In this document: piece by piece, positions 625 to 62,459 of the stretch | Numbering within the stretch: the first letter of the stretch is position 1 | Layout: every line of letters begins with the position of its first letter | DNA from: a virus | Lineage: Duplodnaviria; Caudoviricetes | Virus record (IMG/VR): IMGVR_UViG_2795386114_000004 | Span: 4,641 to 68,640 of that record | DNA: 64,000 nt | Reading direction: 5' to 3' (one strand) | The notes under the pieces: model-generated | The model's input: the letters and a program-made list of their open reading frames with translations, nothing else | Databases searched by the model: none | What the model was told of the DNA's origin: nothing | Position numbers and translations under genes: made by a program

Positions 625-780
625 ATGGCCGTCTTCTTCGCTGGCCTCTTCCTCGGCGGCCTGTCCGGCGGCGTCACCTACGGACTCACCACGGACAACC
701 ATCTCGCCGCCATCGCGGCAGTCATCGCCGCCGTTCTGACCTGGTTCGGCATAGCCACGCTGCTGATCTTCGACGACTGA
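625..780 (+). CDS. Small two-TM membrane protein
   Basis: Manually read ORF MAVFFAGLFLGGLSGGVTYG...LLIFDD, starts 1 nt after the upstream stop. Confidence 0.7.
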   Translation: MAVFFAGLFLGGLSGGVTYGLTTDNHLAAIAAVIAAVLTWFGIATLLIFDD

Positions 781-820
781 CCCGCTAGCTGACAGCCCGC
801 CCACCCCACCGAGAGAGGAG

Positions 821-14557: not shown

Positions 14558-14803
14558 ATGTCCGACACGCTGATCCGCTCGCTCGACCTGATCGAGCCCG
14601 GCGACCTGGTGCTCTACCACGGCACGTTCGAGTGTTGCCACGGCCTGTGGCTCGCCGTTCCCTGCCCCTGCGAACTCTGCCGCGTCGCTGACGACCTCGG
14701 AGTCCCCGACGTCCGCTTCGTCCTCGTCGACCCGTGGGGCGAGGAGCCGGGCCCGCACCACGTCCGCCGCCAGTCCATCACCCGCTCCGCCGCCTCCGGC
14801 TGA
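14558..14803 (+). CDS. Hypothetical Cys-containing protein
   Basis: GGGAG RBS; PGDLVLYHG..PCPCELC. Confidence 0.7.
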   Translation: MSDTLIRSLDLIEPGDLVLYHGTFECCHGLWLAVPCPCELCRVADDLGVPDVRFVLVDPWGEEPGPHHVRRQSITRSAASG

Positions 14804-14812
14804 GCACCACCC

Positions 14813-14889
14813 GGGCCCGTAGCTCAGGGGCAGAGCAGGCGCCTTAAAAGCGCGACACGTCGCCGGTTCGAATCCGGTCGGGTCCACCA
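14813..14889 (+). tRNA. tRNA with UAA anticodon (reads the Leu codon TTA) on a short-variable-loop body, CCA encoded
   Basis: Acceptor GGGCCCG/CGGGTCC, D arm GCTC/GAGC, anticodon loop CT-TAA-AA (14845-14847), T arm GCCGG-TTCGAAT-CCGGT, A73, CCA. Confidence 0.85.
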
Positions 14890-14923: not shown

Positions 14924-16132
14924 GTGACCATCGCCACCGACGTCAACACCGCCTTCCACGACGAGAAGACCCGCCAACTCGACGCCGCCCGCTCCCGCGA
15001 GCGCGCCTTCCAGGCCCGCATCGACCGGGGCGAGATCCGCATGGTCAGCGCCAACACCTACGAGGTCCTCACCGGCTGGGACCAGGGCGAGCAGTTCACC
15101 GTCTCCCGCAACCCGCAGGGCGAGATCGATGCGATCATCGCGAACCACGGCCTCGACACCCGCGCCGACGGCACCATCGCCCTGTACGCCTCATCCCCGG
15201 CCTGGCACGACCTCGGGCAGATCATCCCGGGCGGCACCACCGACATCGACACCGTGCTGGAGTTGTCCGGCCTCGACTTCGACGTCACCACCGTCCCCGC
15301 CCTGTACCAGTGGGACGGGAAGCTGCGGGAGCACACCGACCAGCGCCACACCGTCCGCGAGGACACCGGCGCACCCCTCGGCGTCGTCGGCCGCAGGTAC
15401 CAGCCCATCCAGAACAGGGAAGGCTTCGAGTTCCTCCAGGAACTCGTCGGCCGCTACGACGTGGTGTGGGAGTCCGCCGGGGTCATCCGGGGCGGGCGTC
15501 GCGTGTTCATCTCCATCCGCCTTCCGCAGACCGTCACCGTGGACGCCGACGGCATCAACGACCGGATCGTCCCGTACGTCGCCGTGATGAACGACCACAC
15601 CGGCAACGGCACCTTCCAGTGCGTCGTCACCCCCTGGCGGCCCGTCTGCGCCAACACCGAACGCTTCGCCGTCCGCGACGCGCACACCCGCTGGGCCGTC
15701 CGCCACACCAAGGGCGCCACCGACCAGATCAAGGAAGCCCGCCGCACCCTCGGTCTGTCCGTCCAGTACTTCGACCAGTTCGCCGCCGAGGAAACCGCAC
15801 TCTCCCGCACGGACATCGCCGTCGCCGACTTCCACAAGGTCATCGCCGACCTGTGGCCCCTCGACGACGACGCCTCCGACCAGAAGCGCACCAACCACGC
15901 CGCCCGGATCGGCGCCCTCGACGACGTCTTCCGCACAGAGACCGAGCGGGTCGGCCGCACCGCCTACGCCGCCGAACGCGCCATCACCGGCTTCCTCGAC
16001 CACGTCACCCCGCGCCGCCCCCCGAAGACCATGACCGAAGAGATCTTCCGCGCCACCGCCGCCCTCGAAGGCGCCGACGACGACACGAAGACCAAGGCCC
16101 ACAAGCGGCTGATGCTGCTCACCCGGGCCTGA
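14924..16132 (+). CDS. DUF932 (DUF945 / TIGR03299-like) phage/plasmid protein
   Basis: PAWHDLG, PLGVVGRRYQPIQNREGF, ESAGVIRGGRRVFI, TPWRPVCANT, VRHT. Confidence 0.9.
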   Translation: MTIATDVNTAFHDEKTRQLDAARSRERAFQARIDRGEIRMVSANTYEVLTGWDQGEQFTVSRNPQGEIDAIIANHGLDTRADGTIALYASSPAWHDLGQIIPGGTTDIDTVLELSGLDFDVTTVPALYQWDGKLREHTDQRHTVREDTGAPLGVVGRRYQPIQNREGFEFLQELVGRYDVVWESAGVIRGGRRVFISIRLPQTVTVDADGINDRIVPYVAVMNDHTGNGTFQCVVTPWRPVCANTERFAVRDAHTRWAVRHTKGATDQIKEARRTLGLSVQYFDQFAAEETALSRTDIAVADFHKVIADLWPLDDDASDQKRTNHAARIGALDDVFRTETERVGRTAYAAERAITGFLDHVTPRRPPKTMTEEIFRATAALEGADDDTKTKAHKRLMLLTRA

Positions 16133-16237: not shown

Positions 16238-16310
16238 AGCGCCGTAGCTCAGTTGGCAGAGCAGTTCCCTTATAAGGTTCAGGTCGCGGGTTCGAGTCCC
16301 GTCGGCGCCA
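16238..16310 (+). tRNA. tRNA-Ile-like with UAU anticodon (reads ATA); partly degenerate, no encoded CCA
   Basis: AGCGCCG/CGGCGCC acceptor (A1:C72 mismatch), GCTC/GAGC D arm, loop CT-TAT-AA (16271-16273), two U-U mismatches in the anticodon stem, GCGGG-TTCGAGT-CCCGT T arm. Confidence 0.7.
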
Positions 16311-16342
16311 CTCAAACACCCACCTTCTACTGGGAGTTGAGC

Positions 16343-27370: not shown

Positions 27371-27766
27371 ATGGTAGACAGACCGACGGGCGAGACGTAC
27401 GCGGAGATCGCCGCCCGACACGGCCGCGCCGAGACCACCATCCGCAACCAGTGGGCCCGCCACCCCGAATGGCCGAAGCCAATCGGCAAGCGCGGCCGAA
27501 ACCTGATCTTCGATCCGGCCGCCGTCGACAAGGCTATCGCCGAGCACATCGAACGACCCGCCGCCCAGCTGGAGGCGCGCCGCCTCTACACCGCCCGCGA
27601 GATCGAAGCCCTCACGGGGGTCACGGCCGGGACCATCCGCGCCGACCGCAACCGGAGCCGCTGGCCAGCCCCCGACGACGACAGCGGACGCGCGCACCGC
27701 TGGTACGGCGCTACTGTGACCAAGGCTCTCACCGGACGGCGTGGATACCACAAAACGATTCCGTAG
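27371..27766 (+). CDS. Tandem winged-HTH (excisionase/AlpA-like) DNA-binding protein
   Basis: TYAEIAARHGRAETTIRNQW..WPKP and YTAREIEALTGVTAGTIR..WPAP. Confidence 0.75.
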   Translation: MVDRPTGETYAEIAARHGRAETTIRNQWARHPEWPKPIGKRGRNLIFDPAAVDKAIAEHIERPAAQLEARRLYTAREIEALTGVTAGTIRADRNRSRWPAPDDDSGRAHRWYGATVTKALTGRRGYHKTIP

Positions 27767-27927
27767 TCGTGATCGACAAAGCGGACCGCCGAAAGTGTGT
27801 AGCAGCCCCATCGACCCTGCCTCGGGCACCCCTGGCAAGGGCGGCACGGGATCCGAGGGTGTCACCGTTCGGAGGCATCGTCCGCGCGCTGACCGGTTAA
27901 GCCCGGCTTCTTCCCTAATGTGGGGGC

Positions 27928-28149
27928 ATGTTCCTCGCTGTCGAGTATCTCGCTGGCGGTTGCACTGCTCCTGGCTGGTGGACGGCCCTTGGTGCCTTCT
28001 TCATGCTTGCCGGGATCGGCGGACTTGTCGGCGCCTTCATAGAAGGTGATCAGCCCTGGTGTGCCGGTTGCTTTGGGCTGGTGCTCGCCGTGGCAGGCGT
28101 GCTGATGCTGATCAAAACCGTTCCGATCCTGGCCGACGGATGCCCATGA
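27928..28149 (+). CDS. Small membrane protein
   Basis: Two hydrophobic helices; weaker codon bias. Confidence 0.5.
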   Translation: MFLAVEYLAGGCTAPGWWTALGAFFMLAGIGGLVGAFIEGDQPWCAGCFGLVLAVAGVLMLIKTVPILADGCP

Positions 28150-28314
28150 GCAAGTCGGTTACGGGGTCAAGGCGAACCACGCTGCTGCCGAGCTTTCCGG
28201 CCAGACGTACCAGGGGGACGTACACCGCTGGCTGTTAGACGGGGAAGAGGTGACGCCGGTGGGGCCGAAGCGTGCCGCTCTAGGCAGTGTCCTGTCGATC
28301 TCGGCTGTCAGCGG

Positions 28315-28998
28315 TCACACTCCGATGAAGCTCACCGTTTCCGTCATGGCCGCCCGCCCGGTACGCAGCCTCGGCACGCCTTCCTTCTCAAATCCCACTG
28401 AGATGCCGCAGAAGAGCACGAGCCCGTCATCGGCTCCGACTATCTGGCTGACAGTCTTGCGGTACATGGTCCACATCACCTGGGGGCAGCTGTGCAACCC
28501 TTCCGCCCTCAGCAACAGCATGACCGTCTGCAAGTACATCCCCGCATCACCCCACTGGCCGGGCCCCATCGTCCGGTCGAGGTAGCAGAACAAGACGACC
28601 GGCGCCCCGAACGCCTCCGAGTTCAAGGCGGCGATCTTCTGGGGCCGGTCGGGGTCGTTGCGCTCGATTCCCAGGGCTTTGTACCGCTGGGCGGCCGCGG
28701 CGGAGAAACGGTCCAGATACGGCGAGGTCAGTTCGTCCGGGTACATCGGGTACTCCCGCTCATCACCCGGGTCTCCAGCCAGTGCCCTGGCGGTTGCGCG
28801 TCTCTTCAGTTCGGCCAAGGGTTCGCCAGTCACGACATAGACATGCCACGGTTGGAGGTTCCCACTGGACGGAGCCCGCGTCGCTGCGGTCAGCACTCGT
28901 TCGAGTACCTCCCTGGGCACCGGCTCATCGCTGAACGCCCGTACGGCCCGGCGACTGTCCACGGCCTCATACACATCCACGTCTTCGCGTCCTCTCAT
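28315..28998 (-). CDS. Nitroreductase family protein
   Basis: SRRAVRAF, RAPSSGNLQPW, DAGMYLQTVML..GLHSCPQ. Confidence 0.92.
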   Translation of the reverse strand: MRGREDVDVYEAVDSRRAVRAFSDEPVPREVLERVLTAATRAPSSGNLQPWHVYVVTGEPLAELKRRATARALAGDPGDEREYPMYPDELTSPYLDRFSAAAAQRYKALGIERNDPDRPQKIAALNSEAFGAPVVLFCYLDRTMGPGQWGDAGMYLQTVMLLLRAEGLHSCPQVMWTMYRKTVSQIVGADDGLVLFCGISVGFEKEGVPRLRTGRAAMTETVSFIGV

Positions 28999-29093
28999 TC
29001 AACCGGGCCCCTCCACCGTATTCAGCGGTCAGCACCGAGCATCGCCAGAGGCTGGAAGATGTCCCGACGATCAGTCCAGTCGTTGATGGGACT

Positions 29094-29216
29094 GTGGGAG
29101 ACAGAGGTGACTTGACGGATGCTCAGTGGGAATGGCTGGAGCCGCTTCTAGCAGTGAGCAACGGGCGTTGCGGTCGGTGGCGGGGTCACCGCCAGGTCGT
29201 AAACGGGGTGCTTTAG
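29094..29216 (+). pseudogene. IS5-family transposase N-terminal remnant (DUF4096-like)
   Basis: Manual translation RGDLTDAQWEWLEPLLAVSNGRCGRWRGHRQVVNGVL then TAG. Confidence 0.75.
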
Positions 29217-29405
29217 ATGGTGCCTCCGTCACGCTGACGATCGACGTACCGGGCGCCGTACTGCCGAGACCAGTGACGCCGCCCGGATCCTTCGGCCTCC
29301 GGTAAGAATTCCCACCGGGGGTGACGCGCCGGGAATGAAGCCGGAGTACCCGGCGAGTCAGCCGTGAGCCTGAAGAGCGGACCCTGTCACCCCGCCCACC
29401 GAGAG

Positions 29406-29431
29406 GAGCCCCGCCCCTCATGGCGGGGCTC
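29406..29431. terminator. Hairpin terminator downstream of the minus-strand lipoprotein gene
   Basis: GAGCCCCGCC-CCTCAT-GGCGGGGCTC. Confidence 0.65.
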
Positions 29432-29438
29432 GCTCGGG

Positions 29439-29969
29439 TCAGGCCGCGTCAGGGCAGAACGTTGTGCCGGCGTCCACCCACTCCGCATACGCGTCGCCGT
29501 CCTTGCCGTTCCACAGGTCGGTGCCAGCGTTGCCCTTCACGAAGCCCTGCTGGGTGATCGTCCCGGTGAGCAGGTAGTTCTCGCCGTCGGCCGCGTTCAG
29601 GAGCGCGCCGCCGCCGACCGCGTCGCTGCACTCCATCACCACGTCGGACGTCTTCCACGGCCAGCCCTTGCCGTACGACTCGCGGTTCGCGATGACGCTT
29701 TCGTCCAACTGCTTCACCGTGTGACCGGGGAACAGCGCCTTCGCCGTGGTCGAGGGCGTCGCCGCTGGCTCGCTCGGCTCTGTGGTGGTCGGTGCTGCGG
29801 TGGGTGGCTCGACGGTCGGTGTCGGCGGGGCTGGCCTAGGTGAGCTCGGCGAGGGGCTGCTCGCTGGCGAAGTGGTCGGCTTGCCGTCCCCACTGTCGGA
29901 GTTGGAGCCGCAGGCCGCGCACACCGCGGCAACCAAGGCTGTGGCAAGGAGGGTTCTGAGGGGCTTCAC
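29439..29969 (-). CDS. Lipoprotein with Pro/Thr/Ser-rich linker
   Basis: MKPLRTLLATALVAAVCAAC lipobox; C-terminal WPW...C...LLTG domain. Confidence 0.8.
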   Translation of the reverse strand: MKPLRTLLATALVAAVCAACGSNSDSGDGKPTTSPASSPSPSSPRPAPPTPTVEPPTAAPTTTEPSEPAATPSTTAKALFPGHTVKQLDESVIANRESYGKGWPWKTSDVVMECSDAVGGGALLNAADGENYLLTGTITQQGFVKGNAGTDLWNGKDGDAYAEWVDAGTTFCPDAA

Positions 29970-30049
29970 AGCAGCACCATGGCAGCCGCATCACCGGGCG
30001 AACGTGATGTGACCCACCTGTGACGGCACGATCACCGATCTGGAACCAG

Positions 30050-30661
30050 TCAGGGGAGCAGAGGCTTCCGCAACAACCGGCGCACCCACCGCTTGCTCGA
30101 CCACCAGGCGCCCCGATACACCTGCCACCACCTCGGCAGGTACCAGAGGTCATCCCGACAGAGGTCGCCGAATTCCCGCTGGGCATCGGCAACCCTGCTG
30201 ACTGCTGCCTCCACCTCGGCGGGTCTAACGCCCATGTTGAGTTCGAGCACCTTGTTCAGGCGGTCCAGTACGTGATCGGCGGCCTGGAGGGGCGCAGGGT
30301 TGGCGACAAGCCGTAGGTCCAGGTAAGCCCGAAGCACGTCGCTCTGGGCGCTCTGCAGGGCGGCCACCGCTGCGCGCGCGGACTTGTTCGCGGCCCACGG
30401 GCGGTACGAGAGAGACCACCGCCCGTTGCCGAACCAGACGGTGTGCAGATGTTGCTCCAGGTGCACGACGGTGATCGCGCTGTAGGCCTCCGTCACCGCC
30501 TCTTGAAACCGCGCGTACACCTGACGCCGCTCGTCCCTACTCCCAAGCCGAACACCGGACTTGGACTGGAGCTGCTTCGTGACGACGCTCCCGACTGTCT
30601 TCGCCAGAGAGGAAACGCCTACGCTCAATGGATCAACCACATCGCCAGTCTGCACCCTCAA
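30050..30661 (-). CDS. Hypothetical moron protein
   Basis: About 200 aa helical ORF, ERRQVYARF..LRLVAN..CRDDLWY. Confidence 0.7.
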   Translation of the reverse strand: MRVQTGDVVDPLSVGVSSLAKTVGSVVTKQLQSKSGVRLGSRDERRQVYARFQEAVTEAYSAITVVHLEQHLHTVWFGNGRWSLSYRPWAANKSARAAVAALQSAQSDVLRAYLDLRLVANPAPLQAADHVLDRLNKVLELNMGVRPAEVEAAVSRVADAQREFGDLCRDDLWYLPRWWQVYRGAWWSSKRWVRRLLRKPLLP

Positions 30662-30766
30662 CGCCGCCGATACCCCGCACAGTTGCCGATGCCGCAGGAT
30701 GATCTACCAATCTGGGACGAAGTAGTAGGCCACTGGTAGTTCTGGGAGATCGCGCACACTGGCCCA

Positions 30767-56495: not shown

Positions 56496-56531
56496 ATGCC
56501 CCCGCCGCCCGAAGGCGGCGGGGGCATTTTT
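56496..56531. terminator. Rho-independent terminator
   Basis: ATGCCCCCGCCGCC-CGAA-GGCGGCGGGGGCAT then TTTT. Confidence 0.8.
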
Positions 56532-57240
56532 CACGTCCCAGGGGTTGCGCGCTCTGGACGCTATGAGGGAAGGTGACGGCCCTGCCCCCTTCAACTCCCC
56601 AGGTGGAAGCGGTGGCGCTGCCCCTGCTGACTCCCGAGCAGCAGGGGCTTAACCGTGCGCGCTCAGCCTGCCCAGCCGACGTCGTGCACCTCGATCCCAG
56701 CGGCGCTGCGCGCTGGCCATCGCCCACCCCGGACAGTCCGTCCCGCCCAGGTTCAGTTGAGGAAGGCGGCGACGGCACTGGCCACGGCGGTGGCGAGGGT
56801 GATGACTGCGGCGAAGGTGGTGGCGGCGCGAGTGAGGGCAGGGTAGATGGCGCCGCCCAGGGCTTGATGCCGAGAAGCTGCGGCTCCCGGGCCTACGTCG
56901 CTCTTTTTTCGGCGAGAACTGCTGGGACCCCGTTATGGGTGGGGAGATCACGGAGCAGGTGTGGGGTCACCTCGAGCAAGGGGTGGCCGTTCACAACAAG
57001 CCCCATCAGCATCCCGCGAAGCCGAGCGGGACTGATCGTTCGGAAGGTCAGGACCACCACCTTGGCCTTGCCCGGCCGGAATCGCGGCCCTGAGCGCGAC
57101 TCGCCCACCGCCAACGGCAGTGTCACCCGAACGGCCTACATGCTCCCGCATCCAGCAAGCGCCGTTCGCCCGCCCGGACCAGTCTGGCCAGGAGTCTGCG
57201 CCACCGCATTCCCGTGATCACTGCTCCATCGGGAGGCGTC

Positions 57241-57378
57241 ATGGTCGTGATTGTTCTGCTCCTGCCGGTGATGCTCGTGCTCATGCTGTTCGGGCTGGAT
57301 GCCCTGGAGAACTTCTTGTTCCCCCAGCTCCCCGACCGATCCCCAACCGACGCAGGAGAACATTCGAAACCGCTCTGA
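57241..57378 (+). CDS. Small single-TM protein (45 aa)
   Basis: GGGAGG RBS; MVVIVLLLPVMLVLMLFGLDALENFLFP.. Confidence 0.55.
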   Translation: MVVIVLLLPVMLVLMLFGLDALENFLFPQLPDRSPTDAGEHSKPL

Positions 57379-57433
57379 CCTGCGTCATCAACCCTGCTGG
57401 GTAAACGCGCAGCGCAACCCTTGAAACAGGCAT

Positions 57434-57937
57434 TCAAGCCTCGTCTGCTTCCTGATCTGGGTGAACGTTGCCGAGGTCAACTGACTCGACGGTGATCTGA
57501 GCAAGGGCGTCCTGGAGTCGGCGGACGGCATCCTCCGCCTCCGCGTATTCCTCAGGACTGGAGAGGACAGTGCCGAAGGTGCCGCCGCCCTCAGATGGCA
57601 GGGCGCGCCAGCGCAGGACCGGTTCGAGCCCGTTGAGAGCACCGGAGAGAAACCAGGCCAGGCGGCCGTGAGTGCGCGCGAGCGAGATGGCCAGCACGGC
57701 GAGAGTCTCCCGCAGGTGTTCGAGCCGCTTGATCTGCGGCAGGGCCTCCTGGACGTCCTGTGGGCCGACAACGTCGCGCAGGCGGGCCTCGGTCTCAAGA
57801 GCGAGTACGCGGTCGCTCGGCGCGAGTTTCCACACCTGGTCTTGGATCTGCTGTTCGGCTTCCTCCGCCAGTACTGCGACGATTCTCCGCATGTCCATGC
57901 GGATCACTCTAAATGAATGGATCCCGCCGCCCGACAC
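57434..57937 (-). CDS. Hypothetical protein (start may be at MDMRR, about 57898)
   Basis: Helical ORF with good codon bias. Confidence 0.65.
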   Translation of the reverse strand: MSGGGIHSFRVIRMDMRRIVAVLAEEAEQQIQDQVWKLAPSDRVLALETEARLRDVVGPQDVQEALPQIKRLEHLRETLAVLAISLARTHGRLAWFLSGALNGLEPVLRWRALPSEGGGTFGTVLSSPEEYAEAEDAVRRLQDALAQITVESVDLGNVHPDQEADEA

Positions 57938-58052
57938 GACCGTGTTCGACTTCTGACCTGGGCTAACAATGTGCCACGGATTCGAAACAGGTGTGCACGG
58001 TTCTCCCAGGGTGTGTGCTGGGCGGCAATGTAGCGGGCTGACCGCTGGGTCG

Positions 58053-58391
58053 CTACCCGTCGAGGTAGCCGAGCTTGCTGTCCGGTCGGCATGCCCCGCA
58101 GGCCTTCACGCCGTCAGCGAGGGCCCGTAGTGCGTCGTCACGGCTGATGTCCCGGCGCCGCTTTCCGGAGTTCCAGCAGTCGCCGACGTGAAGCTGCACC
58201 GGTGGCGCGGACCGGTTGAGGCCGAGTTCGAGGAGCCAGTCGGGCGGTGCTGGCCGGGCTTGCTCGCCGCGCTGCCGCTCGGCCTCCCGGCGCTCTGCGT
58301 CCGCGATCTGCCGCTGGACCCGGTCGAGGGTGTAGAGGAGCCAGGTCTCCAGGGTGCGGAGACGCGGCAGATCCGGCGGCAAGTCGTTCAC
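58053..58391 (-). CDS. DUF6233-like protein
   Basis: DLPPDLPRLRTLETWL..PPDWLLE..HVGDCW..ACGACRPD. Confidence 0.8.
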   Translation of the reverse strand: MNDLPPDLPRLRTLETWLLYTLDRVQRQIADAERREAERQRGEQARPAPPDWLLELGLNRSAPPVQLHVGDCWNSGKRRRDISRDDALRALADGVKACGACRPDSKLGYLDG

Positions 58392-58399
58392 ATGTTCGA
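58384..58399. promoter_or_regulatory. Degenerate actinobacterial LexA (SOS) box overlapping the DUF6233 start
   Basis: TCGTTC-ACAT-GTTCGA versus TCGAAC-N4-GTTCGA; minus-strand TACAAT -10 adjacent. Confidence 0.5.
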
Positions 58400-58510
58400 T
58401 TGTATGAGGTGGGCTGCGGCGGCGGAGTGCGGGGACGGGCGCACTGTGCCAGTGGATCTTGAACGGGTAGTCGGTTAGCGGGTGGCCCGTCGTTGCGCTT
58501 GCATACCAGG

Positions 58511-59065
58511 TCACGCCGCAGTGCCATGGGGTGACGACTCCATGGGTGCGGTCGTGAGGTCGGCCAGCTGCCATGTGGGGTGCACCGTGAGGCGCGGGGC
58601 AGAGCCATGCTCGACCGTCTGGAGGTCAACCGCACCGTCGGCCTGCGGGACGCTGCCCTTGGTTCGAAGCGCGCCCTCTTGTGGCGGCAGAAAGTCCGTG
58701 TTGATCTCGCGGGCAAGGGCCTGGGACATCATGTCCCGGCGGATACAGAAGGTGTAGTGCTTACGGTCCCGGCTTACCTTGACAGCGAAGGTGCGGAGCG
58801 GCAGCAAGGCAGGTTCCACGAGTTCATACTGGGTGCGGAATTCTGGCTCAGCGGCCGCCAGCTCGGGGCGCAACTCGAACGCGTCCGTGCTGGACAGGTG
58901 CCGAAAGTACTCGTCCAGATCCCGCAGCAGCTCGGGGTGAATGTGGCCAGCGAGGATCAGCTGGTCGGTGCGGATACTGCTGGAAGCGTGTGTCCAAGAC
59001 GTGAGTATCAGGTGCGCATCCGGCAGTTTATCGGCGATCGCCCACGAGGCCCTGAATCTTGGCAT
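58511..59065 (-). CDS. Hypothetical protein
   Basis: MPRFRASWAIADKLP.., 184 aa. Confidence 0.55.
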   Translation of the reverse strand: MPRFRASWAIADKLPDAHLILTSWTHASSSIRTDQLILAGHIHPELLRDLDEYFRHLSSTDAFELRPELAAAEPEFRTQYELVEPALLPLRTFAVKVSRDRKHYTFCIRRDMMSQALAREINTDFLPPQEGALRTKGSVPQADGAVDLQTVEHGSAPRLTVHPTWQLADLTTAPMESSPHGTAA

Positions 59066-59188
59066 ACGCCTCACATTGCGCCACTCGGGGCGGCTTGTCC
59101 AGGTGGGCGCCACCCGGGCGAAACCTCTCGCTTCCGCCGTAGGCACTCCACAGATCTAAGCGCAGGGCCGACCCCCTAGGCTGCCAGG

Positions 59189-59830
59189 GTGATTGAGACC
59201 ATCGTGTTCGACGTCGGCGAGACGATCACCAGGGACGACCGCTACTGGGCGTCCTGGGCCGACTGGCTGGAAGTCCCCCGACACACCATCTCCGCGCTGG
59301 TTGGGGCGGTCGTGGCCCGAGGCCAGGACAATGCGGAGGCGCTGCGCCTCGCTCGCCCAGGCCTCGATGTGGCCTCCGAGTACCACGCCCGGGAGGCCGC
59401 CGGCCGGGGCGAGCAACTCGAAGAGAGCGACCTCTACGAAGACGTGCGCCCGGCCCTTTCTGAGCTTCGCGAGCTCAGCATTCGCGTGATCATCGCCGGG
59501 AACCAGACAGCGCGCGCCGGTGAGCTGCTGAGGGATCTGGATCTGCCCGCCGACCTGATCGTGACCTCCGGGGACTGGGGCGTTGCGAAGCCGCAGCCGG
59601 AGTTCTTCGAGCGCGTTCTGGAGGTGGCGCAGGCCGCGCCACGACACACGCTGTACGTCGGTGACCACCCCGCGAACGACATCTTCCCGGCGCGGGCGGC
59701 CGGGCTGCGTGTCGCGCACATCCGGCGAGGCCCGTGGGGGCACCTCTGGGCAGAGGACCCGGATGTCGTGGCGGCGGCGGACTGGCGGATCGACACTCTC
59801 ATGCAACTCGCGTCGATCGCCGGGAGCTGA
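59189..59830 (+). CDS. HAD-superfamily hydrolase
   Basis: FDVGET, AGN, AKPQPEFF, YVGDHPAND. Confidence 0.92.
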   Translation: MIETIVFDVGETITRDDRYWASWADWLEVPRHTISALVGAVVARGQDNAEALRLARPGLDVASEYHAREAAGRGEQLEESDLYEDVRPALSELRELSIRVIIAGNQTARAGELLRDLDLPADLIVTSGDWGVAKPQPEFFERVLEVAQAAPRHTLYVGDHPANDIFPARAAGLRVAHIRRGPWGHLWAEDPDVVAAADWRIDTLMQLASIAGS

Positions 59831-59929
59831 CACGGAGGAGGCCCCGCCGTCAACCAGTGGGGCCCTTTGCATACACACAGCGTCTCGGCGCCGGTACCGT
59901 TCGGAGTGGACGCCCGAACTGGAGCCAGC

Positions 59930-61117
59930 ATGCCTGCACTTGCCAGCGGTGGAGTAGGCAGAAGGATCGCCTACTACCGCAGCGTCGTCCGCCCGAAGAT
60001 GACGCAACAGGAACTCGCCGACGCCGCCTGTGTAGCGCTTGGCACCATCCGCAAGGTCGAGCGTGGTGAGCGTGGTGTCAGCGAGACCACGCTCGAAGCC
60101 ATCGCTGGCGCCCTCGGCGTCGACCCTGCGCGCCTTCGGGCGGATCGGGGCCCCGCCCACACCGCCGTCCACGATGCGCTGCCCGCCCTGTCTGCCGCCA
60201 TCGCCGCGTACGACATGCCAGCGGACGGTCCGATTCGCCCCCTGCACGAACTCCGGGCGGCCGTCGACCAGGCGGTCGGCTGGCGACTGGCGGCGATGTA
60301 CACGCACATCGTTCAAACGCTCCCCGATCTTCTGGAAGAACTCGGCCGCGCCTACCACGAGGCCGCCTCCCACGAGCGTCCCGAGCTCGCTCAGCTGCTG
60401 GTAAGCGCCTACCGCTCAGCGGATGCAGTCGCCTACAAGTTCGGCGCCCGGGATCTGTCCGCGCGCTTGGTCGAACTCATGCGGTGGGCCACCCCAGAGG
60501 CCGGTGATCCGCTTCTTGCCGCGGCCGTCGCGTACGTACGCACCGAAACCTTCTTCGCGGCACGCGCCCACACGGCCGGACTGCGCGCCCTGGAAGAAGC
60601 CATCGACGCTGCCCCAGCGCCTCTCACAGCCTCAGAGATTGCTGCGAGAGGCGCCCTCCACATGAGGGCAGCAGTCATCGCCGGCCGCGCTCGCGATGCA
60701 GATGCGGCGGACACTCATCTCGCTGAGGCGCTGACCCTCGGGGAGCAGGTAACGGAAGGCGTCTACAACGGCACGGCCTTCGGCCCCGACTCCGTGCGCA
60801 TTCACGAGGTGTCAGTCGCCGTGAGCCTCGGCAACGAACACGTGGGGCGCGCCCTCGACGTCGCCGCAGAGTGGAAGCCGCCACTCAATTTGCCCGCCGA
60901 GCGGCGATCCTCCTTCTACATCGAACTGGCCCGCGCCCAACTCTGGTCCGGGCTCGCAGACGACGCCTTCGAGTCCTTGAAGGTCGCCCGTAGCATCGCC
61001 CCGCAGCACACCCGGGAGCACCGATGGGTTCGCGAGGACTCGGGCACACTGCGCCGACTCAAGCGCGCCGACGTTGAATCGCTCACCAACTTCGCGGAGT
61101 GGTGCGCCGCTACCTGA
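59930..61117 (+). CDS. XRE-family HTH regulator with TPR-like C-terminal domain
   Basis: MTQQELADAACVALGTIRKVERG; TAFGP..VRIHEVS; IELARA..APQHTR. Confidence 0.88.
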   Translation: MPALASGGVGRRIAYYRSVVRPKMTQQELADAACVALGTIRKVERGERGVSETTLEAIAGALGVDPARLRADRGPAHTAVHDALPALSAAIAAYDMPADGPIRPLHELRAAVDQAVGWRLAAMYTHIVQTLPDLLEELGRAYHEAASHERPELAQLLVSAYRSADAVAYKFGARDLSARLVELMRWATPEAGDPLLAAAVAYVRTETFFAARAHTAGLRALEEAIDAAPAPLTASEIAARGALHMRAAVIAGRARDADAADTHLAEALTLGEQVTEGVYNGTAFGPDSVRIHEVSVAVSLGNEHVGRALDVAAEWKPPLNLPAERRSSFYIELARAQLWSGLADDAFESLKVARSIAPQHTREHRWVREDSGTLRRLKRADVESLTNFAEWCAAT

Positions 61118-61199
61118 GCCAACACCCCGACTACCCCTGGCTGGGGTACTTGTGGGGTTCGTTTGCCCCCACCATCTGTCACACGCGTAGGACCAGCAG

Positions 61200-61403
61200 A
61201 TGGGACCGGGGATGCCAGACGCACTCCCGCTCACGCCGACAGTCATCGACGGCCGCGTGAGCATCGCTCGACTGCACGGCGAGGCCTGCTTCGACTGTGG
61301 CGCCGTCGCCAAGAACCTGCGCGTGGCCGGACACATCGTCGTCCGTGGCAGTACCCGCGTGTGGGAGATCGTCACGTGCGGATGCCGAAGGACGGCGGCA
61401 TAA
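61200..61403 (+). CDS. Small zinc-ribbon protein
   Basis: GEACFDCG...TCGC. Confidence 0.6.
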   Translation: MGPGMPDALPLTPTVIDGRVSIARLHGEACFDCGAVAKNLRVAGHIVVRGSTRVWEIVTCGCRRTAA

Positions 61404-61480
61404 ATGCCACGCCGAAGCAGACCCCCGCGATCGTGCGACCGATCCGGGGGCGTGGCCAACGCTGCTGAGGAGCGTCAACA

Positions 61481-61651
61481 ATGACGAACGCTACAGGCCT
61501 CGCCGAACAGCGCCCACCCGGCGCGAAGATGACTATCAGGGTGTACACGGTCACGCGCGAGGGCATTGTGACCGCCCCGCGCGCCACGGTGACCGTGCCG
61601 TACAGGACTGTTCCCGCGTGGGAGCCTTTCCGGGCGGGTGCTGCCCGGTGA
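61481..61651 (+). CDS. Small hypothetical protein
   Basis: GAGGAG RBS; MTIRVYTVTREGIVT; stop overlaps the next start. Confidence 0.6.
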   Translation: MTNATGLAEQRPPGAKMTIRVYTVTREGIVTAPRATVTVPYRTVPAWEPFRAGAAR

Positions 61652-62025
61652 GCTGCACGGTGATGACGAGCAACGACACACACCCTCTCGACATCAAGGT
61701 GATGCGGGAGACCGCCGCGATCCTCCTCGAACCCGACGCGGCTCCGGAGGTCCTCGCGCCGCCCCCGACCGAGCTGGAGACGCTCATTCCCCTGCTCCGC
61801 AGTCAGCTGGAGTGGCTCGCCCCGGAAGTCGAGCACGCCGCCGGGAAGCTCGACAAGAACAGCGTCCCCCGCTACTGCGCCCTCGCCTGCGTCGGTGAAG
61901 CCCGCGGGAAGCTCCGTGCCAAGCCGAACCCCGGCCCGGGCGGCGACGCCGCCTACGCCCGCAAGCTCGCGCGCGTCCTCCACGCCCTGTGCGACCACTA
62001 CGAGAACTTCGGCGGTCCGGCATGA
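61648..62025 (+). CDS. DUF6415-like protein
   Basis: PLDIKVMRETA..PRYCALACVGEARGKL..ARKLARVLHALCDHYE. Confidence 0.7.
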   Translation: MSCTVMTSNDTHPLDIKVMRETAAILLEPDAAPEVLAPPPTELETLIPLLRSQLEWLAPEVEHAAGKLDKNSVPRYCALACVGEARGKLRAKPNPGPGGDAAYARKLARVLHALCDHYENFGGPA

Positions 62026-62222
62026 CGGCTCTTCCTTCCGGGTGCCAAGTGGTGAACCCGGATGCTTCCAGCGGCATGCCAGAGGCCCTCGTGTCGGAGA
62101 ACCCGAAACGGCGGGCATGGGCACGCTGGTGCATCCATGCCACGGCCTGCCGGGTTTGCCAGACCAACAGCGCCTTCTGCGAGCGTGGCTAACGGCTGAG
62201 CCGGGTCTACTGGCAGGCCTAG
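62022..62222 (+). pseudogene. Small His/Cys zinc-binding ORF with a probable premature stop at 62190
   Basis: AWARWCIHATACRVC..CERG*RLSRVYWQA; frame continues after TAA. Confidence 0.4.
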
Positions 62223-62459
62223 CTCACCCGGTCCTGAACCACCATCCCAGCCCCGGCTGAGGGGCCCCACGGCGGCCGCTTCGGGTCAGGGCCGCACCCC
62301 ACGACCCCCGCCTTGCCTGTGTCCAAGACCCGGCGAGGCGGGTACGCCCGCCCCGTCGATGGCTCCGGAAGACCGCGGCGGGGCGGGTTCCAGGACGCTC
62401 CCTTCCCTTCGAGGTAGAGGGGCGAGCACGATGAATCCGCAAGAGACAGGGAGAACACC

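Follow-up and report, generated by a model that had tools for sequence, protein, structure and literature searches.

A prophage tRNA with the anticodon UAA and an alanine identity set: a candidate missense tRNA for UUA on mobile elements of Streptomyces

Results and discussion

The prophage analysed here encodes a tRNA with the anticodon UAA whose acceptor helix carries the identity set for alanine, including a G3·U70 wobble pair. The best explanation for the sequence pattern described below is that this tRNA gene is functional and selectively maintained, on prophages and on one linear plasmid, and we give a probability of about one half to the reading that it is a selected, alanine-charged missense tRNA for UUA on Streptomyces mobile elements. 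According to this reading, the tRNA(UAA) would be cut out of the transcript of the early and replication gene block in which it lies, and its acceptor helix would present the alanine set to the alanyl-tRNA synthetase (AlaRS) of the host, which, following the known rules for this anticodon-blind enzyme, would load alanine. The UAA anticodon would then read UUA, and possibly also UUG by wobble, as alanine, and UUA decoding would become independent of the developmentally limited bldA tRNA of the host; a sister allele with the anticodon UAU would act likewise at AUA. Expression, alanylation, the decoding outcome and the benefit to the element are steps that we infer from the sequence. All positions given here refer to the window, i.e. 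the whole stretch of 64,000 nucleotides that was analysed.

The prophage and the neighbourhood of the tRNA gene

The window was taken from a 68,640-bp IMG/VR provirus record (completeness listed as 100, 69.6% G+C) and codes for terminase, portal, major head, tape-measure and endolysin proteins; the element is a prophage. The tRNA(UAA) gene is located within a co-oriented block of early and replication genes, where it is preceded by an ORF of 81 aa without family match (14558-14803, plus strand), which ends with a stop codon 9 nt ahead of the tRNA, and followed, 34 nt past its end, by the start of a DUF932/phrog_1221 gene (14924-16132, plus strand; Pfam 1.8e-60, PHROG 3e-72), whose close relatives are all found in Streptomyces genomes. 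A promoter and terminator scan detected neither a promoter on the strand of the tRNA nor a terminator in its vicinity; the single promoter-like site near the gene is on the opposite strand.

The DUF932 gene recurs near members of the tRNA clade in two other carriers (L217 and L222, with proteins 27% and 25% identical to that of the window, respectively) and is annotated in a third (L226). A role of the DUF932 protein as a tRNA enzyme was considered and dropped: there was no match among PDB sequences (best E value 0.36), and the predicted model (mean pLDDT 69) had no clear fold match, the best Foldseek hit reaching an E value of 8.5e-3 at a TM score of 0.15 and the best VIA hit a Z score of 7.1. 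The neighbours of the tRNA are a DUF932 gene without an informative structural relative and ORFs without family match.

Two regions of the window, at about 27,700-30,700 and 56,500-62,300, are characterized by lower third-position G+C and ORFs on both strands. Situated between the phage modules and beyond them, they resemble accessory or cargo genes, or host DNA at the edge of the provirus. Most in-frame TTA triplets of the window fall in these two regions, none of them in a convincing gene.

Anatomy of the tRNA(UAA)

ARAGORN predicted a tRNA gene with the anticodon taa at 14813-14889 on the plus strand, and the Rfam model RF00005 matched 14813-14886 (model positions 1-71) with 56.1 bits, compared with a gathering score of 29, and an E value of 2.1e-9. 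The minimum-free-energy structure is a cloverleaf as well. Its folding energy (z = -1.29, equalled in 21 of 200 shuffles) is ordinary for the composition, so that the evidence for the gene is carried by the covariance model and not by the energy.

The segment and pairing tables derived from the sequence describe a type-I scaffold with a 7-nt variable loop (14855-14861) and an encoded CCA end. The 5' strand of the acceptor stem comprises 14813-14819, with G3 at 14815; its 3' strand (positions 66-72) and the discriminator base A73 comprise 14879-14886, with U70 at 14883 opposite G3. The anticodon arm (14838-14854) contains the loop C32-U33-U34-A35-A36-A37-A38, in which the anticodon UAA occupies 14845-14847, and G27 (14838) faces G43 (14854), a mismatch flagged by cmscan that leaves an anticodon stem of 4 bp. 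All four stems, U8, A14, G18-G19, the T-loop and U33 are otherwise intact; the D-loop has 7 nt, with G15, and the variable loop ends with C48. An initial annotation made from the letters of the sequence had listed a 77-nt cloverleaf with TAA anticodon, A73, CCA, the G27·G43 mismatch and a 7-nt variable loop. Each of these features could be verified, but G3 opposite U70 and a second tRNA gene at 16238-16311 had been overlooked.

This second tRNA gene (plus strand; predicted by ARAGORN and matched by RF00005 with 58.3 bits, the gathering score being 29) has the anticodon UAU and a different scaffold, here referred to as family B. In the window copy, the third acceptor pair is C3:G70, A1 and C72 are mismatched, and the anticodon stem contains two U·U mismatches. 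A family-B tRNA(UAU) is present about 100 nt downstream of the DUF932 gene in 9 of 15 close DUF932 loci (L003, L008, L010-L012, L014-L016 and L019, one copy having an irregular loop), two of the 15 loci ending right after the DUF932 gene; at a further locus, L004, the family-B tRNA is found upstream of the DUF932 gene instead. Most family-B copies have a mismatch at the top of the anticodon stem according to an automatic split of the stems, which is wrong for 3 of the 12 copies.

The alanine identity set

The acceptor helix of the tRNA(UAA) starts with the pairs G1:C72, G2:C71, G3·U70, C4:G69 and C5:G68; G1:C72, G2:C71 and G3·U70 together with the discriminator A73 make up the identity set for alanine. 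The first five pairs and A73 are the same as in the tRNA-Ala(CGC) of a complete Streptomyces genome, and pairs 1-6 are the same as in the tRNA-Ala(UGC) of Streptomyces phage BRock. A G3:U70 pair alone is reported to be sufficient for recognition by AlaRS (PMC11415595), an enzyme described as making no contact with the anticodon (PMC6055181), and a C70U change that creates G3:U70 in yeast tRNAPro leads to mistranslation with alanine (PMC5389508).

Several control sets were used to see how specific this pair is. In a complete Streptomyces genome that carries a related prophage, G3·U70 is present in all four tRNA-Ala genes and in none of the 69 other tRNA genes. Among 65 tRNAs of three tRNA-rich actinophages, it occurs in both tRNA-Ala genes and in one of 63 others. 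U70 is absent from all 112 isotype-assigned metagenome tRNAs whose 5' 24 nt are identical to those of the tRNA(UAA) (113 tRNAs were retrieved, one irregular 90-nt call giving an ambiguous match), and G3·U70 is absent from all 12 family-B tRNA(UAU) genes of the same elements. In these control sets, G3·U70 is diagnostic of tRNA-Ala. The sole exception among the actinophages is an 84-nt gene of BRock (L224, 16302-16385) annotated as tRNA-Ile gat; we regard this call as doubtful, its length suggesting a mis-bounded or an unusual gene.

The anticodon of the tRNA(UAA) is not an alanine anticodon (NGC), which rules out a cognate tRNA-Ala and leaves alanylation possible. The body of the molecule is not similar to tRNA-Ala either: it shares 54 to 59 of 71 positions with many type-I tRNAs, compared with 45 to 51 of 71 with host tRNA-Ala. 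Descent from a tRNA-Ala was rejected, as there is no signal of such ancestry.

Two further observations concern tRNA calls encountered during this comparison. In the related prophage L014, ARAGORN placed a 'tRNA-Ala (cgc)' of 90 nt, its anticodon being at position 39, some 1.6 kb upstream of the slot for the tRNA (708-797, minus strand); this is probably a false or aberrant call. In the complete Streptomyces genome G002, the locus L180 (G002:C1:1875650-1882130) contains a cluster of atypical tRNA calls, namely a Gly-GCC with an unusual acceptor stem, a Glu-CUC that ranks among the tRNAs most similar to the tRNA(UAA) of the window, and a 78-nt Trp-CCA; this locus is probably another mobile element with its own tRNAs.

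Distribution and carrier lineages

Ten homologs were compared: the window copy, those of the prophages L003 and L014, which share synteny with the window across 2-2.7 kb at 79-80% identity, six copies (L020-L025) retrieved by a BLAST search of the tRNA(UAA) against 401 Streptomyces genomes, and L226, whose carrier is a 264-kb linear Streptomyces plasmid. A member of the clade was present in 6 of the 401 genomes of this genus-level sample and in none of 401 genomes, most of them new, of a family-level sample at an E value of at most 1e-10; the clade is thus rare. A repeated genus-level search of the same fixed 400-genome sample added just one family-B tRNA.

The carriers can be assigned to three lineages, the first consisting of the window prophage, L003 and L014, the second of L217, L221 and, in part, L222, and the third of L218, L219, L220 and, placed by gene arrangement alone, the plasmid L226. 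L217 and L218, which represent different lineages, have essentially nothing but the tRNA in common, and the flanks of L020-L025 align with the window only in short pieces around the second tRNA.

A megablast search of a phage collection with the 3 kb around the tRNA(UAA) gave no match, and a sensitive search of this collection with the tRNA alone, which also counted a few short pieces of higher identity, revealed generic similarity, the best full-length matches being 77-79% identical and annotated as Met, Phe, Lys or Arg tRNAs. In IMG/VR, a pattern of the 5' half occurred at five unrelated loci and a gapped clade pattern had no matches; a metagenome scan with this half picked up ordinary tRNAs for Met and Lys, which served as the background set mentioned above.

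Conservation of the wobble pair and switching of the anticodon

G3·U70 is kept in 8 of the 10 homologs, which represent three lineages and not eight independent samples (L023 and L226, for example, differ by a single base). The two exceptions are found in the prophages most similar to that of the window: L003 has A3·C70 and is otherwise a plausible UAA tRNA, and L014 has G3:C70 combined with a defective anticodon loop, called with 6 nt.

Among the six closest members, all seven columns of the variable loop alignment vary (3 to 6 of 7 in pairwise comparisons), with only the last base, C48, being constant. Outside this loop, 10 of 67 columns vary (2 to 8 of 67 in pairwise comparisons), and the 5' strand of the acceptor stem, the D stem and the 5' strand of the T stem are invariant. 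Position 65, opposite G49, alternates between U and C in these six members; position 70, opposite G3, is always U, as it is in L025 and L226. This conservation pattern fits a functional tRNA that would retain the wobble pair itself. The variable loop and the adjoining positions 26, 27 and 43 diverge far more than even the syntenic flanks (10-16%), and the loop also changes in length (window copy, L020-L024, L226); relaxed constraint, indel turnover and diversifying selection are candidate causes.

With respect to the anticodon, the ten homologs comprise seven copies with UAA, one with UAU and two degenerate copies (L014, with its 6-nt loop call, and L025, with a broken anticodon arm). Freely drifting anticodons, which according to the initial annotation would have spoken for a merely structural role, were not found. 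The UAU allele (L024, in L221) occupies the site orthologous to that of a UAA allele (L020, in L217) in regions that are syntenic over 11.2 kb with about 87-90% identity. The change is a restricted switching between the readers of the two rarest A-ending codons. For a synthetase that reads the anticodon, as IleRS does, a switch between UAA and UAU should disturb charging, and an anticodon-blind synthetase would tolerate it.

In each of the seven UAA members, a single terminal pair of the anticodon stem is open. The bases involved are G·G or A·A where the open pair is 27:43 and C·A or C·C where it is 31:39, which makes four combinations; the stem of the UAU allele is perfect. Anticodon stems of 4 bp occur in 5.6% of bacterial tRNAs and are described as a recognised functional variant, and those that were tested experimentally decode more loosely (PMC13092985). 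By analogy, the 4-bp stem of the UAA members probably tunes their decoding.

Charging with leucine

The initial annotation had taken the short variable arm as a sign of a non-leucine scaffold. This premise is weak in Streptomyces: in S. coelicolor, a native type-I tRNALeu(CAA) whose variable loop measures 5 nt is charged by the single LeuRS of this organism. This enzyme is unusually permissive; A73 does not belong to its identity elements, and the requirements named for it comprise U8:A14, C74 and at least 5 nt in the variable loop (PMC6614811). A 76-nt tRNA-Leu(CAA) is also encoded in the complete genome that carries the related prophage. Since a native type-I tRNALeu is charged in this genus, a leucine-charged bypass of bldA, the first of three options offered by the initial annotation, has to be weighed. 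In such a scenario, LeuRS would load leucine, and possibly some alanine, onto the tRNA(UAA), which would act as a surrogate of bldA and free TTA-containing genes from its timing.

With U8, A14, an encoded C74 and a loop of 7 nt, the tRNA(UAA) agrees with the requirements of the S. coelicolor enzyme; L003 retains the UAA anticodon without G3·U70; and a type-I tRNALeu(CAA) with swapped anticodon is reported to be able to replace bldA (PMC6614811, citing its reference 38). These requirements, however, are generic to almost all tRNAs, so that leucylation is not specifically predicted by them, and the leucine elements described for E. coli, A15-U48 and A20a (PMC9976931), are both absent from the tRNA(UAA). 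The molecule is also unrelated to the host type-I tRNALeu(CAA), which differs in its acceptor stem and has A14-A15 within a large D-loop and U48 at the end of its variable loop; descent from this tRNA was rejected, no signal of ancestry having been found. Nor is there a relationship by sequence with the bldA tRNA of the host, which has 84 nt and an acceptor stem and D arm unlike those of the tRNA(UAA), which itself lacks a long variable arm. Charging with leucine furthermore leaves unexplained why three diverged lineages retain G·U, and not G:C, as their 3:70 pair, and why UAU is found on the same scaffold. We regard leucine charging as unlikely, yet as an explanation that deserves serious attention.

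Of the other two options of the initial annotation, the insertion of a residue other than leucine at TTA is the one favoured by G3·U70; an uncharged decoy lacks positive support. That the phage could manipulate host development, as suggested there, is a further inference.

Decay, decoy functions and codon demand

The tRNA might also be non-translating or decaying, i.e. a relic, a decoy for anticodon nucleases, a trigger of the stringent response or a processing signal. The slot is indeed patchy, with a tRNA upstream of the DUF932 gene in 4 of the 15 close DUF932 loci, L014 and L025 are clearly degenerate, the anticodon stem is imperfect in every UAA member, no promoter was detected on the strand of the tRNA near the gene, and the prophage shows no visible demand for a reader of TTA. 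Against this, the body of the tRNA is strongly conserved compared with saturated variable-loop sites and flanks that cannot be aligned, the elements listed above for a working tRNA are intact in the window copy, and no more than one terminal pair of the anticodon stem is open in each case, which corresponds to the recognised 4-bp variant (PMC13092985). Taken together, a non-translating or decaying tRNA appears improbable to us.

Codon usage contributes little to this question. Among the 16,447 codons of the 75 confidently called ORFs of the window, there is no TTA (and there are six ATA); in-frame TTA triplets of the window are confined to antisense frames or frames with low third-position G+C. 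Given the 145 UUA codons per genome reported for S. coelicolor (PMC6614811), about one TTA would be expected at this rate, so that the count of zero says little either way. The neighbourhoods of the tRNA in the carriers contain zero or one TTA per 1.8 to 4.2 thousand codons, one of these counts being an artefact that overlaps the tRNA. An explanation based on codon supply was dropped; the TTA counts are too small to be informative. Loss of bldA by the host was rejected, as bldA is present in all five carrier genomes tested.

It is very improbable that the tRNA is an alanine donor for a non-ribosomal transferase acting on the cell wall, on lipids or on natural products: an alanine set on a scaffold whose anticodon, UAA or UAU, reads one of the two rarest codons and would thereby limit a role in translation would agree with such a function, and dedicated tRNAs for aminoacyl-tRNA-dependent transferases exist in Gram-positive bacteria, but no aminoacyl-tRNA transferase was found beside the tRNA, where the DUF932 protein is without an informative fold match, and the T stem, with four or five G:C pairs and in some copies an additional G·U pair, has none of the weakening that marks tRNAs evading the elongation factor.

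Comparison with known systems

The bldA tRNALeu(UAA) shares with the prophage tRNA the anticodon, the codon UUA and the A36-A37-A38 context. It differs in being chromosomal, with the presence in carrier genomes noted above, whereas the prophage tRNA is of type I and has G3·U70.

The closest parallel in terms of recognition is known from the mitochondria of Ashbya gossypii, where CUU and CUA are read as alanine by a tRNA that is recognised via G3:U70 (PMC3874161). Like the prophage tRNA, it combines an anticodon of the leucine box with G3:U70, and a G3A exchange abolishes its recognition, which parallels the A3·C70 of L003 (PMC3874161). In Ashbya, this is a fixed change of the organellar code that was confirmed by mass spectrometry (PMC3874161), whereas the prophage tRNA is mobile, is known from its sequence and coexists with the cognate leucine tRNA of the host.

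The tRNAProX molecules of Streptomyces and Kitasatospora (tRNAProA, tRNAProN and tRNAProT) are likewise naturally encoded tRNAs whose identity elements specify one amino acid and whose anticodon belongs to a different one (PMC11415595). Their identity is that of proline; the prophage tRNA has that of alanine, no synthetase gene was recognised nearby, and its carriers are prophages and a plasmid. A dedicated ProRS isoform accompanies tRNAProX.

The type-I tRNALeu(CAA) of S. coelicolor resembles the prophage tRNA in its short variable loop, U8:A14 and C74 (PMC6614811) and differs in the acceptor stem, the D-loop, the 15:48 pair and the absence of G3·U70. Other tRNAs with 4-bp anticodon stems have one terminal stem pair open, as do the UAA members, but the tested cases are tRNATrp(CCA) molecules reading UGA, and neither a sense tRNA with a UAA anticodon nor a case from a phage or from Streptomyces is mentioned in that study (PMC13092985).

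A phage-borne tRNA(UAA) with alanine identity was not found to be described in the literature searched. The words 'phage' and 'Streptomyces' do not appear in the study on 4-bp stems (PMC13092985), and 'phage' does not appear in a review on mistranslation from 2024 (PMC11415595). Streptomyces phages have been proposed to sense the availability of the bldA tRNA via UUA codons (PMC10732093).

Implications for Streptomyces and its mobile elements

UUA is the rarest codon in Streptomyces and, together with bldA as the single corresponding tRNA, gates morphological development and antibiotic production. Going beyond the charging of the tRNA, we tentatively propose that, during expression of the element, a selected tRNA family gives UUA, or AUA in case of the sister allele, the temporary meaning of alanine. 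TTA genes under the control of bldA would be opened in this way, or stalled TTA messages released, without a supply of leucine, and the 4-bp stem would tune the breadth of decoding; as a whole, this scenario is somewhat less probable in our opinion than its individual premise of a selected, alanine-charged tRNA.

If the tRNA(UAA) were charged with leucine instead, it would still represent a portable bypass of bldA. If the reassignment to alanine is true, this tRNA would be the first sense-codon missense tRNA borne by a phage or plasmid, and it would act on a classic developmental switch. It would constitute a new way to override the bldA gate and a natural case of encoded mistranslation carried by a virus.
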